From: Caldisericota bacterium
GTDB lineage: Bacteria; Caldisericota; Caldisericia; UBA6126; JAGPKI01
Direction of reading: 5' to 3'
DNA: 64,000 nucleotides
Assembly (NCBI GenBank): GCA_052034135.1
Contig: JBPOJC010000039.1
Span: 1,543-65,542, forward strand
Shown piece after piece: positions 23,630-27,786 of the stretch (position 1 is the stretch's first letter; each line of letters starts with the position of its first letter). The translations under genes were made by a program, and so were the position numbers. Under the pieces are notes generated by a model. That model was given only the letters and a program-made list of their open reading frames with translations. It searched no databases and was not told the DNA's origin.

Positions 23630-24012
23630 AGTGAGACTCCTTCGGCACCAATAAGACACTCCCTCAGGAAGACGGGAGAGGGATGGTCATTCTGAGCGTA
23701 AGCGAAGAATCTTCGTATCTGTCATCCCCGAAATCATTTATCGGGGATCCAGACCTTATTTCTAAACATACTTCTAAACTCTCTGGATTCCCGCAATCGC
23801 TTGGAATGACATGAAAAATCGAGAGAATGACATGAAAAGATGAGACCCTTCGTCGCCGGGAAAAACGCTCTTCAGGGTGACAGAGAGGAGGTGGATAGGA
23901 TTATTTTGTCATCCCCGAATGTATTTATAAGGGATCCAAGTCTTCGTTTTTATTATTTTGTATTTAGGAGTGACCGAATTTATAGTTTTACCTCACTATA
24001 TATTATGGAAGA
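23630..24012. repeat. Copy B of the hairpin-rich intergenic repeat family, ending 77 bp upstream of tRNA-Pro
   Basis: Contains gtcattctgagcgtaagcgaagaatc, gtcATCCCCGAaatcatttaTCGGGGATccagacc, ..ctctggattccc.., gaatgaca short repeats, gacccttcgtcgc, ctcttcagggtgacagag and the terminal ..ctcactatatattatggaag. Confidence 0.6.
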
Positions 24013-24088
24013 TATAATTTTCTTCCGTATAGTTGTTTTTTGGACAAAAATGAATAATATAGTTTAGTGTTTTTATATTGAAAATAGT

Positions 24089-24165
<77 letters not shown>

Positions 24166-24796
24166 TTATTAATGTTCATTTTTATTACGTTTATCCTATC
24201 CATTTAAAGATTTCTTCATCTATGGTAAAGTAATTCATGATATTGTTCATGAATTAAAATTAAATTGAAAAAGTCTTGTAGATTTGGTATAAAATTTGAT
24301 ATATAGTGATTGATTTTATAATGATTTTAGAAGTTTATATTTAATTGGTAAGATGAAAGATTTAACCTCTGAGGTAAGTTATAGGGGATTATAATATTTG
24401 TTTATATGTGAAATATCTACTAAATAAGATTACAAACGAATATGTTTAGAGGAGAACAGTTAGCTTTATAAAAGAGGATGCAATGGCTTATCAAAAATTA
24501 ATTTTTAAACTGAAAAAGAACTTCAAGAAGCAATTCTAAATGAAAAAGAAAGAGGAGCCTCTGATTTAGAAATTGGTCAGAAATACGGAGTTACTTTTAG
24601 ATATATCGAACAGCTCATTACAAAGACTCAAGGTCTAAATATTAGCAATTTAAAAGTTTCTAAAAAAATAGAAAAACTTTATCCGAAAAAATTTAACGAG
24701 GAAAAAACCACGATCTGGAGTTTTAAGCAAAGAGGAAACTGGGCAACTCATAGTGGAGAGTATAGAGGTAATTGGTCTCATTACATACCAAGGAAT

Positions 24797-26041
24797 GTGA
24801 TTCTAAAATATTCAAAACCTGGAGAATTAGTATTAGATTATTTTTGCGGTGCTGGAACAACAGCTGTAGAGTGTAAGCTTTTAGGAAGAAAATGTGTCGC
24901 CTTAGATATTAATTATAAAGCAATTGAATTGGCAAAAAAGAATATAGATTTTAGTGTGGAACCACAGCAACAATCACTTTTTGGTCAAAAACAACATTTT
25001 GAAGTCTACGAACCAAGGCTTATTGTTGGTGATGCCAGAGACTTATCATTTATAGAAGATAATTCTATTGATTTGATTTGTGCTCATCCACCTTATGCAA
25101 ATATTATTCATTATACAGATAGAAGTGAAGGTGATTTGTCGTTTTTTGATATAGATGAATTCTTAAAGGAAATGTCCAAGGTAGCTAAAGAAAGTTTTAG
25201 GGTGTTAAAACCTGGCAGACAATGTGCTATTTTGATAGGTGATACTCGAAGCAAAAAACATGTAATCCCTTTAGGTTTCAAACTAATAGATGTTTATTTA
25301 TCTGCTGGTTTTAAGCTGAGAGAGCTAATCGTTAAACAACAACACAATTGTAAAACTACAGGTTTTTGGTATACAAATAGTATAAAATACAATTTTCTTC
25401 TGTTGGCTCATGAGTATTTACCAGTTTTCGAGAAACCAGCAATATCGATTCCTGCAGTTGCAAAAGAAGAAAACACAATAAATTATGATTTGTTTATTCC
25501 TTATTCAAAGAATCCATCGGTAAAAAGTAAATCTAACGAGCTTGAGACCACAACAGTGTGGAGTTTGCCAGAGAAGGATTTCGAGGAGCATTTAAATAGA
25601 AATGTAATTGAAAGATATTCGAACGGTAGCAAATATTCAATTATTAATTTTGTGACAAATTCTAATGAAGAAACCACCTTTTTTGATAATAAAAGAGAAA
25701 AAAACAAAGCTTTGCTTTTTATCAAATTGCCACTTTTAGACAATAATCTATCTAACTCAAATATTGAATTGTATTTGCAAAAAATAAAAGAAATTGTAAA
25801 TAATGGATTACCTACAATAATAGAAGACGGCTTTATAGTTATTCAAACTCAAGATGTAAGAATTGATGGATACGTAAAGCCTCTTGCTAAAGAATTAGTG
25901 AATGAATTAACAAATGATGATTTATGGCTAAAGGAAATAGTGATTGTTACTCAGGAAGGAGTAAATTCAAAAATACAAAATTTAGAGGAGTATTTAAAGA
26001 TAGTGCATCAATATTTACTTGTTTACGAGGTGATAAAATAA
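24797..26041 (+). CDS. DNA methyltransferase (N6-adenine/N4-cytosine amino-MTase). It carries an FxGxG-type SAM motif (DYFCGAGTT) and an (A)HPPY catalytic motif. The annotated ORF is probably only the central segment of a longer, frame-disrupted gene
   Basis: Motifs VLDYFCGAGTTAVEC and DLICAHPPYANIIHY, then ..RVLKPGRQCAILIGD.. and ..HEYLPVFEKP. The reading frame is open upstream to 24509 with HTH-like sequence (LQEAILNEKERGASDLEIGQKYGVTFRYIEQLI) and no start codon. The 3' end can be joined to ORF2 by a +1 A in an A4 run. Confidence 0.75.
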   Translation: MILKYSKPGELVLDYFCGAGTTAVECKLLGRKCVALDINYKAIELAKKNIDFSVEPQQQSLFGQKQHFEVYEPRLIVGDARDLSFIEDNSIDLICAHPPYANIIHYTDRSEGDLSFFDIDEFLKEMSKVAKESFRVLKPGRQCAILIGDTRSKKHVIPLGFKLIDVYLSAGFKLRELIVKQQHNCKTTGFWYTNSIKYNFLLLAHEYLPVFEKPAISIPAVAKEENTINYDLFIPYSKNPSVKSKSNELETTTVWSLPEKDFEEHLNRNVIERYSNGSKYSIINFVTNSNEETTFFDNKREKNKALLFIKLPLLDNNLSNSNIELYLQKIKEIVNNGLPTIIEDGFIVIQTQDVRIDGYVKPLAKELVNELTNDDLWLKEIVIVTQEGVNSKIQNLEEYLKIVHQYLLVYEVIK

Positions 26042-26055
26042 AGAAAACCTTCAGC

Positions 26056-26466
26056 TTGTTAAAAACAATCTTTTACTATTTGGAGTCTTCTTATAAAATA
26101 TGGAAAGTTAATCGTTTGCAAATAGATGACCTTGTTTATACTACTAACGAAAATGTTCGTTTTGAAGTGTATCCAGGTAAAAAGTTACAATCACCTTATG
26201 ATTTTATTGTAAAATTTAGACAACCAGGCAGACGAGCAAGAACACCAGCTCATGTTCATTTGATTGTAGAAATGTATGTTAAGCATGCTTATAATCCATC
26301 TTTAACTTTAAAATTAAGAGACCATATCTTAACAATGCTCAGTCAAATTAAACCAGTAAATACATTTCCGCCAACACTTCAGGTTTTCAAACTTGAACAT
26401 ATTGAACCATTTAAGGATTTGGATAAAGTTGGCGAATTCACAGTTGAGTTCTTGCTTTTGCAATAG
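26056..26466 (+). CDS. Hypothetical protein, or a detached C-terminal (TRD-like) segment of the methyltransferase
   Basis: ORF 25924..26466 overlaps the MTase end by 118 bp. Its first 39 aa look like out-of-frame sequence. There is no in-frame ATG; TTG at 26056 is the first plausible start, and the SD is weak. Confidence 0.35.
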   Translation: MLKTIFYYLESSYKIWKVNRLQIDDLVYTTNENVRFEVYPGKKLQSPYDFIVKFRQPGRRARTPAHVHLIVEMYVKHAYNPSLTLKLRDHILTMLSQIKPVNTFPPTLQVFKLEHIEPFKDLDKVGEFTVEFLLLQ

Positions 26467-26691
26467 AATTAGTAGTAATACGGGAGAAGACCAATTATCC
26501 AAATGGAACTGCAACTGAGAATTTGTATAAGAATTTTGGAGTTAAAGACAGATTTTCAGTAATTCAGGGAGCAGTATGGAAAGGCAGGAGATAATTTAAA
26601 GAAAACCAATCATATTGCCCAAGAGCAGTTAAAAGAAATTTATAAATGTTATAACAGTTAAAAATTAATTTATCTTAGAGGTGAATCAAAA

Positions 26692-27786
26692 ATGAAATTA
26701 ACGAATGATCAAATAACAATTCTAATTGACAAATTTATAAGCTCCGAAGATGCTAAAGTATGGATAAAACAAAGGCAGGATGATAACAAACGATGGAAAG
26801 AATGGATAGATCCCAATAAAATGAGCACTATTTCAGATGAAGAACTGAAGAATAAATTCTTAGAATATTTTAATGAGGGGGCTGGTAGACATCCATTTAA
26901 TGCTGTATATAGAGACAGAATTATAAGAGATATAAACAAATTTAGAGAAACTATAAACTTTCTTATAAATGAATCAACACCTGTTAAGGAAAGACTAAAT
27001 GAAGTGTTAAATGCTAACGGAAGATATCATATTGAAGGCATAGGTAAGGGTCTTGCTACATCTATTTTAATGGATTTAGATTCGCAAAAATATGCAACAT
27101 GGAATAATAAAACAAATATGGGTTTAGAAACTCTCGGTTTAACTCCTCAATTTACTCGTAAAGATGATTGGGGAACAAGATATGAAAAAGTTATGGATGC
27201 AATTACTTATATTAAGAGCTTGAAGTCAGAACTCAGTTTTTTAGAGGTTGACCACTTTTTGCACATAGTTTCAGCTGAAGAACAAGGGATAGAGGCAGTT
27301 AAGGCATTGGTAGAAGGCAGAGAAATATCAACTACCGTTTTCCAAACGATGGATCATATTTCTAAAGAAAGAGAAAGCATGGAATTTGTTATGGAAAAGT
27401 ATCTTGAAGAGTTTATTGAAGCGAATTTTGATAGAATAGATTTTGGAGCTAAACTTCAATTATATCAAGATGAAGAAAACACAGGTAGACAATATCCAAC
27501 ACCTATAGGCAATATTGATTTATTGGCATTTGATAAAGACAAAAAAGAGTTTGTAGTAATGGAACTAAAGAAAGGTAGAAGTAGTGATGTTGTAGTAGGT
27601 CAAATATTAAGATATATGGGTTGGGTAAAGGAAAACTTAGCTATCAGCGAAAATAATGATTACAACGTAAGGGGAATTATTATAGTCAAAGAGAAAGACG
27701 ATAAATTGGATTACGCTTTAAAATTTGTACCAAATGTAAGCTTATTTTTGTACACTATTTCTTTTGGATTGAAGATGATTAAATAA
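26692..27786 (+). CDS. Putative nuclease with an N-terminal helix-hairpin-helix region and a C-terminal NucS/DUF4263(Shedu)-like PD-(D/E)xK domain
   Basis: SD AGAGGTGA is present. HIEGIGKGLATSIL fits the HhH consensus (hxxhxGhGxxxAxxhh). The C-terminal GNIDLLAFDKDKKEFVVMELKKGRSSDVVVGQILRYMGWV matches the D..ExK nuclease core followed by the QxxRY motif of NucS-type restriction-endonuclease-like folds. Confidence 0.7.
   Translation: MKLTNDQITILIDKFISSEDAKVWIKQRQDDNKRWKEWIDPNKMSTISDEELKNKFLEYFNEGAGRHPFNAVYRDRIIRDINKFRETINFLINESTPVKERLNEVLNANGRYHIEGIGKGLATSILMDLDSQKYATWNNKTNMGLETLGLTPQFTRKDDWGTRYEKVMDAITYIKSLKSELSFLEVDHFLHIVSAEEQGIEAVKALVEGREISTTVFQTMDHISKERESMEFVMEKYLEEFIEANFDRIDFGAKLQLYQDEENTGRQYPTPIGNIDLLAFDKDKKEFVVMELKKGRSSDVVVGQILRYMGWVKENLAISENNDYNVRGIIIVKEKDDKLDYALKFVPNVSLFLYTISFGLKMIK

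Follow-up and report, generated by a model that had tools for sequence, protein, structure and literature searches.

The closest described relatives of the methyltransferase (MTase) considered here are Type II enzymes of the N6_N4_Mtase family (PF01555; PADLOC profile PDLC03376). Phase variation of MTases is well established in other bacteria, and known contingency loci have tracts of roughly at least 8; slippage on A-AAG is known in E. coli dnaX and in IS elements. Chromosomal restriction-modification (R-M) systems are reported to turn over fast and to be lost totally with some frequency (Oliveira, Touchon and Rocha 2014, PMC4176335).

The locus described here is a two-gene R-M-like module lying just 3' of a tRNA-Pro gene in a 64-kb stretch of DNA (64,000 nucleotides, hereafter the window) from an uncultured Caldisericia bacterium of anaerobic digesters. 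The module consists of an MTase gene and a downstream partner, here called geneB, and three ordinary point lesions have very probably inactivated both permanently. This resembles R-M decay as described (PMC4176335) in that the module is an accessory one with a patchy distribution, that small lesions are found in one lineage and a deletion in its sister lineage, and that other genomes, too, have a broken partner next to an intact MTase; it differs in that both genes are broken here, leaving no solitary MTase, and in that the partner is only a putative endonuclease.

Results and discussion

The MTase belongs to a family of ~518-520-aa proteins with an N-terminus of the form MxNQKVxFKTEKELQ(EAIL) and a C-terminus ending ...HQYLLVYEVxK, and the repaired window MTase (519 aa) is ~75% identical to ~518-aa homologues over residues 1-519. 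This ~518-aa HTH-MTase family is widespread, occurring in many bacterial and some archaeal phyla with interchangeable downstream partners, and its gene was a single unbroken ORF of 491-564 codons in all 74 complete homologous loci (a further 6 loci were cut by contig ends, and none of these was split). As in described Type II MTases, there are strong profile matches (115.2 bits to PF01555 against a Pfam cut-off of 26.7, and E 8.9e-97 to PADLOC MTase_II, PDLC03376, with all 249 profile positions covered, these matches starting at residue ~59-61), an FxGxG-type SAM motif and an xPPY motif, and in other genomes a tightly linked downstream partner, with a DpnII domain in some loci. Unlike them, the window MTase has a circularly permuted catalytic domain, in which profile positions 132-221 of PF01555 match before the N-terminal part of the profile and motif I (FCGAGTT) precedes motif IV (AHPPY), both motifs being invariant across the family; the tetrapeptide is HPPY, with a His in a first position that is typically D, S or N in (D/S/N)PP(Y/F); and there are additionally an HTH-like N-terminal region of three helices and a C-terminal domain of ~170 aa resembling a partial duplicate of the catalytic domain (hhalign probability 80%). 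An AF2 model of a full-length homologue reached a pLDDT of 49, moderate confidence being confined to the three N-terminal helices and a portion of the C-terminal domain, and was thus too poor for a fold search.

A further difference from described Type II MTases is a frameshift at codon 9/10 of the window gene. The native RBS (AAGAGGA), the ATG at 24483 and the first 9 MTase codons (MAYQKLIFK) lie at 24469..24509 (all features given here are on the + strand), and homologue loci carry aaaagaggatataATG or aaaagaagatacgATG at the RBS region and start MSNQKVSFK. Homologue DNA continues TTC AAA ACT GAA (F K T E) whereas the window reads TTT AAA -CT GAA; because homologues read TTC AAA ACT, the missing base was placed in the A3 at 24507..24509, where one A has been lost from an ancestral AAAA, shifting the MTase frame by -1 (lesion 1). 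The coordinates behind the earlier note hold up (ATG at 24483, A5 at 24513-24517, A4 at 26035-26038, TAA stop at 26039-26041), and it was right that one added A rejoins the frames at the 5' end, but it had placed the break in the A5 run. An A5>A6 repair at 24513-24517 restores the frame, yet puts L-K-K at the family's T-E-K positions, and was rejected for the A3>A4 repair, which brings back K9 and E11, both invariant, as well as T10, which is nearly so.

Ribosomes initiating from the native RBS and ATG would stop after 18 codons (24483..24539; product, by direct reading of the sequence, MAYQKLIFKLKKNFKKQF*). The remainder of the gene, in the shifted frame at 24509..26041, encodes the HTH-like N-terminal region, the PF01555 domain, the C-terminal domain and the native stop, and, as had been observed before, the part of it upstream of the GTG at 24797 is open (from 24509) and contains no ATG, GTG or TTG. 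The proposal that this upstream part encodes a real protein with HTH-like and PF01555 regions is borne out by its ~75% identity to the N-termini of the ~518-aa homologues. The 1-nt deletion parts the start codon from the catalytic domain, leaving no uninterrupted catalytic frame, and the window MTase is thus a pseudogene of the PF01555 family.

A second break in the MTase had been proposed at the A4 run, but in every aligned homologue the stop coincides with the window TAA (26039-26041). The ~650-aa HTH-MTase-TRD fusion that would follow from such a break is likewise contradicted: the downstream frame belongs to a separate conserved gene, geneB, found elsewhere as a free-standing 183-185-aa protein, and ORF 25924..26466 owes its first 38 codons to spurious overlap with the MTase. 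Of the 71 homologous loci in which an ORF follows the MTase, 25 show a 4-nt overlap (offset -3) between the MTase stop and the start of the next gene, many of these genes belonging to the geneA/geneB cluster, and geneB appears to be translationally coupled to the MTase via an ATGA overlap in intact loci. At this junction two homologous loci (L011 and L012) read ACATGA followed by AAAAC, whereas the window reads AAATAA followed by AGAAA, so that ATAA stands at 26038..26041 in place of the homologues' ATGA (lesion 2). With this G>A change the MTase stop survives (TGA>TAA) and the ATG of geneB becomes ATA (26038-26040), so that its start codon is lost.

In tblastn searches with homologue geneB proteins, residues 1-141 of the 185-aa family matched at 69-79% identity in the 5' frame (26038..26466, ending in a premature TAG at 26464-26466), and residues 139-185 matched at 64-73% identity in the -1 frame, where the 3' part of the gene (residues ~142-185) occupies 26460..26594 and ends in the native stop TAA at 26592-26594. 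This frame switch and the alignment to the closest relative, L104, place a 1-nt deletion at about 26455..26460 (lesion 3), the window reading CTT-TTG against an in-frame CTT ATT GCT in L104; it cuts geneB short at residue 141 of 185. With one base added here, the repaired geneB is 185 aa long and, over 100% of its length, shares 84% identity with free-standing 185-aa proteins. Neither the frameshift at ~26455-26460 nor the ATA start at 26038-26040 had appeared in the earlier note.

Searches of geneB against Pfam, PADLOC and PDB sequences found no nuclease domain or known fold, and Foldseek against the PDB gave no match (best E 1.1). The same downstream slot is filled in 10 of 80 homologous loci by a family with a DpnII endonuclease domain (E 6e-12), and because geneB occupies the slot of a DpnII-type endonuclease in other members, it is a presumptive nuclease or toxic partner. 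By this analogy geneB may be the restriction or toxic component of the module, and the 'restriction-modification' label is likewise to be read as founded on the MTase plus the partner-slot analogy. Elsewhere, geneB is frameshifted or truncated beside an intact MTase in three loci (L069, L078 and L036), which is the pattern expected for a toxic partner.

The tRNA-Pro(TGG) gene at 24089..24165 (ARAGORN; Rfam RF00005, 67.5 bits) lies directly 5' of the module, and on the other side is an intact 364-aa gene (26692..27786), a PDC-S02-type defence candidate with a NucS/YhcG-like PD-(D/E)XK C-terminus (PADLOC PDLC04824, E 2.7e-45; Pfam YhcG_C and NucS_C), which we treat as context and at most as a putative member of the module. 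The sister lineage L104 retains the tRNA-Pro (97% identity) and the 364-aa gene; the MTase is missing there, and so is geneB over its 5' three quarters. A search for island boundaries found no att-like copy of the tRNA-Pro 3' end of at least 13 nt in the 64-kb window, and a 22-nt direct repeat (26028/26586) was at chance level. Tetramer statistics showed GATC to be mildly (0.66) and CTAG strongly (0.07) depleted, neither being attributable to the MTase. Scanning for promoters and terminators was uninformative, the DNA being AT-rich.

The lesions are fixed at contig level across samples: all three were identical in 11 of 11 independently assembled metagenome contigs from 11 runs (in three accession series, ERR1981050, ERR497/498xxxx and SRR22590xxx), which differ from one another by 0-4 SNPs elsewhere. 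Seven of these contigs were sampled through a neighbouring gene, P0242, and so independently of the state of the MTase, and a 414-aa and a 128-aa ORF were present in all 7 contigs listed for it. The 414-aa ORF (24797..26041, with the GTG as start) is that reported by gene callers; it is P0001 in the protein collection, and members of its cluster are all 414 aa. Neither a full-length MTase more than 75% identical nor an intact geneB more than 84% identical was found among 5.8 billion protein clusters. Exact-pattern scans of genome and metagenome contigs (allowing N{0,1} at both A runs) gave 0 matches for either allele and are thus uninformative.

These data bear on the explanations that the earlier note had offered for the interrupted frame. 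Homopolymer under-calling in an assembly of genes that are really intact would account for two single-base indels touching A or T runs, but runs of 3-5 nt are not error-prone, the ATG>ATA substitution is not explained by an under-call, and a consensus error would not recur in 11 independent contigs of three accession series alongside strain-level SNPs elsewhere; such an artefact is scarcely credible. Slipped-strand mispairing at A or T runs, switching the MTase and perhaps geneB ON and OFF, would resemble phasevarion MTases in placing a frameshift near the MTase 5' end at a short A run, where indels are reversible in principle. The tracts at the lesion sites (A3, A5 and T4) are however only 3-5 nt long, with no length polymorphism in the 11 contigs, all of which, including the 7 reached via the neighbouring gene, are in the same state at all three sites; no ON allele occurs in the protein collection; the site of lesion 3 is not a homopolymer in the nearest relative (CTTATTG > CTTTTG); and lesion 2, as a substitution, is irreversible by slippage. 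Phase variation is therefore a most improbable account of this locus. The remaining suggestion, inactivating frameshifts in the course of R-M decay, is supported in altered form, with a single frameshift in the MTase accompanied by a frameshift and a start loss in geneB.

Some function might nevertheless persist in the MTase by either of two routes. The 414-aa product of GTG 24797, the only later start, could be an active orphan MTase dispensing with the HTH region, and the ORF does retain motifs I and IV and has AAGGA just 5' of the GTG. This AAGGA is 2 nt from the GTG, however, too close for a normal RBS, and the shortened protein would lack not only the HTH region but also the block W79-N105 (WSFKQRGNWATHSGEYRGNWSxYIPRN), which is invariant across the family at nearly every position and forms part of both the PF01555 and the MTase_II matches. 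The earlier note had held it against its own reading should homologues start at this GTG and end at 26041; they do end at 26041, but no homologue starts at the GTG position. In addition, an invariant Ser of the MTase is replaced in the L097 allele (S300N), and we consider a functional short form highly doubtful. The other route is leaky recoding, with a -1 slip on G AAA AAG (24512-24518) yielding MAYQKLIFKLKK-ELQ... and a low level of full-length MTase. In its favour, AAA AAG lies inside the 28-nt overlap of the two frames, as at the programmed -1 sites of the A AAA AAG type in dnaX and IS3/IS911, the native RBS and ATG are intact, and the remaining MTase frame is stop-free without excess private substitutions. 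Unlike at those sites, the first base of the heptamer is G instead of A, departing from the canonical X XXY YYZ, and stimulatory elements are lacking: there is no Shine-Dalgarno-like element upstream, and downstream structure is not significant (z = -0.99; 38 of 200 shuffles fold equally well). The two-frame layout occurs in none of the 74 complete homologues, and the site is therefore not conserved for recoding; the product would have L-K at the T10-E11 positions, which are invariant or nearly so; and the partner, geneB, carries two independent breaks of its own, a sign that selection has been relaxed across the whole module. Recoding is thus very unlikely.

We therefore favour permanent inactivation of both genes, in which case neither the MTase nor the geneB protein is presumably made. 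The inactivation is probably recent, since neither gene shows an excess of private substitutions (3 in the window MTase, against a family range of 1-9, and 2 in geneB, against a maximum of 3) and both frames are otherwise stop-free. As a relative-rate test for relaxed constraint, this comparison does not discriminate between the hypotheses, and the absence of excess substitutions would also fit continued low-level expression.

Conclusions

Three further proposals are together very unlikely. Slippage on G AAA AAG might sustain low MTase expression, which would keep the chromosome partly methylated after loss of the toxic partner; loss of the MTase might instead have been selected because the neighbouring intact PDC-S02-type nuclease (26692-27786) attacks modified DNA; and, separately, geneB and geneA might represent a new restriction endonuclease fold pairing with a widespread MTase family. 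The uncharacterised 185-aa geneB family is the only element here possibly worth experimental work.

With recent decay of the module as the preferred explanation, the finding matters mainly for annotation. The ORFs called as a 414-aa 'methyltransferase' and a 128-aa 'hypothetical protein' are fragments of two pseudogenes, here and on at least 11 public contigs, and it would be a mistake to score the locus as an active R-M system or orphan MTase in this Caldisericia population. Loss of an R-M-type module is seen here at two stages, as point lesions in one lineage and as a deletion in its sister lineage.

A single frameshift near the start of the methyltransferase gene

The methyltransferase (MTase) of this uncultured Caldisericia bacterium, whose LeuS is 93% identical to that of a TPA metagenome-assembled Caldisericia genome, is annotated as a 414-amino acid ORF running from GTG 24797 to TAA 26039-26041, its frame being open in the 5' direction as far as 24509 with no ATG, GTG or TTG in the added stretch. 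An 18-codon ORF (MAYQKLIFKLKKNFKKQF*) starts at ATG 24483, which is preceded by AAGAGGA and lies 317 nt downstream of tRNA-Pro(TGG) (24089-24165), in a window of ~31% GC. An A5 run occupies 24513-24517, an A4 run (26035-26038) lies directly ahead of the MTase stop, and a further ORF overlaps the gene from 25924 to 26466. These coordinates, reread on the sequence, agreed with those of the earlier note, which placed a break in the MTase at each of the two A runs.

The conceptual fusion protein (661 aa) had >1,200 relatives among 5.8 billion protein clusters, the top full-length matches being 516-525 aa long, 69-75% identical and covering ~79% of the query; the sole 100% match was the truncated 414-aa ORF itself (P0001). 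Homologue N-termini align as MxNQKVxFKTEKELQEAILQEK, a single N-terminus that the window therefore divides between the 18-codon ORF and the startless frame upstream of GTG 24797. At the DNA level homologues have AGT TTC AAA ACT GAA where the window reads ATT TTT AAA -CT GAA, and so the lesion is the loss of one A (AAAA to AAA) at 24507-24509, repair of which gives a 519-aa protein that agrees with the family at K9 and E11, both invariant, and at T10, which is nearly so. Lengthening the A5 run to A6 also restored the frame, yet it put L-K-K at the positions of K9, T10 and E11; the 5' break is thus real but had been slightly mislocated. The startless stretch encodes the invariant block W79...N105, and the matches to Pfam PF01555 (115 bits) and PADLOC MTase_II (E 9e-97) each start near residue 59-61, ahead of GTG 24797, so that this stretch is predicted to be functionally essential.

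At the 3' end, all aligned homologues finish with ...HQYLLVYEVxK at the position of the window TAA, and a separate gene follows directly, its start overlapping the MTase stop by 4 nt at 25 of the 71 loci having a downstream ORF (ATGA in locus L011). There is no 3' break, the TAA being a normal gene boundary, and since the downstream frame belongs to a separate family (geneB), the ~650-aa HTH-MTase-TRD protein formerly proposed is unsupported.

Two lesions in the partner gene

The geneB family (183-185 aa, without a Pfam domain) is 70-84% identical across Atribacteria, Zixibacteria, Planctomycetota, Dehalococcoidia, Archaeoglobaceae and others. Using homologue proteins, tblastn placed residues 1-141 in the frame of 26038-26460 and residues 139-185 in the -1 frame at 26451-26591. 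The closest relative available, the sister lineage L104 (92% DNA identity), reads in frame GAG TTC TTA CTT ATT GCT ACA GAG where the window has GAG TTC TTG CTT -TTG CAA TAG, which is a 1-nt deletion at ~26455-26460, the T4 run there being the product of it and not the cause; with one base added the gene encodes exactly 185 aa. The start codon is also lost, the window having ATA (26038-26040) for the homologues' ATG, and this change of the overlap from ATGA to ATAA keeps the MTase stop. A second frameshift therefore does exist, but in the partner gene, together with a lost start codon, and not in the MTase.

By sequence geneB had no match in Pfam, PADLOC or the PDB, nor had its AF2 model (pLDDT 75) a Foldseek match in the PDB. 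Two related small genes, geneA (~176 aa) and geneB (~185 aa), follow the MTase at L018, L022, L030-L032, L039, L064 and L069; they form one BLAST cluster and have a ..QE..NYPEG.. motif in common, hinting at a two-subunit partner. A weak NucS_N PH-like match (E 0.004) was found in geneA.

Nature of the module

The MTase belongs by sequence to the Type II-type N6/N4 enzymes, its motif order being permuted (FCGAGTT ahead of AHPPY). Although its AF2 model was of low quality as a whole (pLDDT 49), three helices at the N-terminus reached pLDDT 75-85, which agrees with the HTH proposed previously. The C-terminal ~170 aa (residues ~350-519, window ~25530-26038) align to the enzyme's own post-motif-IV catalytic half (hhalign probability 80%, E 1.5e-5; PF01555 E 8e-4), suggesting a partial duplication within the protein, now degenerate, in place of a classical target-recognition domain.

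In all, 80 homologous loci were taken from species-representative genomes of many bacterial phyla, Thermofilaceae and Promethearchaeota archaea; the wide spread of the MTase family at 55-75% identity implies frequent horizontal transfer. Over these loci (L017-L096) the slot after the MTase is interchangeable between at least five unrelated families: the geneA/geneB superfamily (35 loci), a ~410-aa family (16), a ~345-380-aa family with a DpnII endonuclease domain (PF04556, E 6e-12; 10), a ~360-aa family (5) and others at the remainder. This resembles the behaviour of a restriction-modification (R-M) MTase with alternative nucleases, geneB being only a putative one.

Directly after the module lies an intact 364-aa gene (26692-27786, + strand) matching the PADLOC defence candidate PDC-S02 (E 2.7e-45), with a NucS_C/YhcG-like PD-(D/E)XK C-terminus; contig L105 (141-2758) carries a 94%-identical copy, after which comes an N6_N4 MTase of 430 aa that is not the one described here. 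The 364-aa protein might interact with methylation, for instance as a modification-dependent nuclease. Upstream of tRNA-Pro, 600 nt of non-coding DNA contain short repeated elements within 23680-23960 (23720-23751/23907-23938; 23804-23824/23825-23845); an Rfam search gave no match besides the tRNA. Most public short-read contigs of the locus stop between 23783 and 24139, and this clustering suggests a repeat or strain-variable junction. Across the whole window (1-64000), CTAG was extremely depleted, occurring 8 times where trinucleotide content predicts ~109 (ratio 0.07), with ratios of 0.66 for GATC and 0.62 for GTAC; no tie of this bias to a particular R-M system was found.

Fixation and probable decay

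All three lesions were present in 11 contigs from 11 runs (ERR1981050, an ENA anaerobic digester run, ERR4976692, ERR4981987, ERR4982096, ERR4982100, ERR4982102, ERR4982103, SRR22590155, SRR22590158, SRR22590160 and SRR22590171), with 0-4 SNPs relative to the window at other positions. Because this search favoured the truncated ORF, a second sampling was made through the neighbouring 364-aa gene (P0242), in which 7/7 contigs among the matches listed showed both ORFs (414 and 128 aa) and the same sequence at every lesion. Clustering at 90% grouped P0001 with 414-aa members only, and an intact allele nearly identical to either gene was absent from the protein collection. Pattern scans of two DNA collections gave 0 matches for either tract length and were hence uninformative. 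Across the contigs sampled the lesions are fixed, and they are very probably neither artefacts nor switches.

An assembly error is highly improbable, as it would have to recur in every one of these runs despite the SNPs that separate them, and phase variation is very unlikely when all 11 contigs share the same three lesions and the intact allele is missing from the protein collection. Leaky -1 recoding could use G AAA AAG (24512-24518), the one motif resembling a slippery site, but no significant RNA structure lies downstream of it (z = -0.99) and none of the 80 loci has a split MTase (the gene is one complete ORF of 491-564 codons at 74 and runs off a contig end at the other 6), making recoding hard to credit; the frameshift is not a family feature. 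That the 414-aa form is itself functional is likewise unlikely, since it is without W79...N105 and the start of both profile matches.

Very probably, the module has undergone recent, fixed pseudogenisation as a two-gene R-M-like unit. Private changes at otherwise invariant positions numbered 3 in the MTase (range 1-9) and 2 in geneB (maximum 3), and with no excess of them the inactivation is therefore probably recent. L097 carries an additional G>A (window 25380) giving S300N at a family-invariant serine, a single observation that is consistent with relaxed constraint. In L104 (GCA_020049655.1, JAHZTS010064578.1, 1-1800; compared with window 24047-27784), tRNA-Pro (97% identity) is followed by ~240 nt of unrelated DNA and then by the equivalent of 26360-27784; nothing remains of the MTase or of the 5' three quarters of geneB, and what is left of geneB reads in frame where the window has its deletion. 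This loss is independent evidence of decay. In other genomes intact MTases stand next to a geneB that is frameshifted (L069, L078) or truncated (L036), a pattern expected if geneB is the harmful partner. Decay of the module fits the fast turnover and frequent total loss reported for chromosomal R-M systems (PMC4176335). The finding is an ordinary one, whose practical value is to correct the annotation and to point to an uncharacterised 185-aa partner family.
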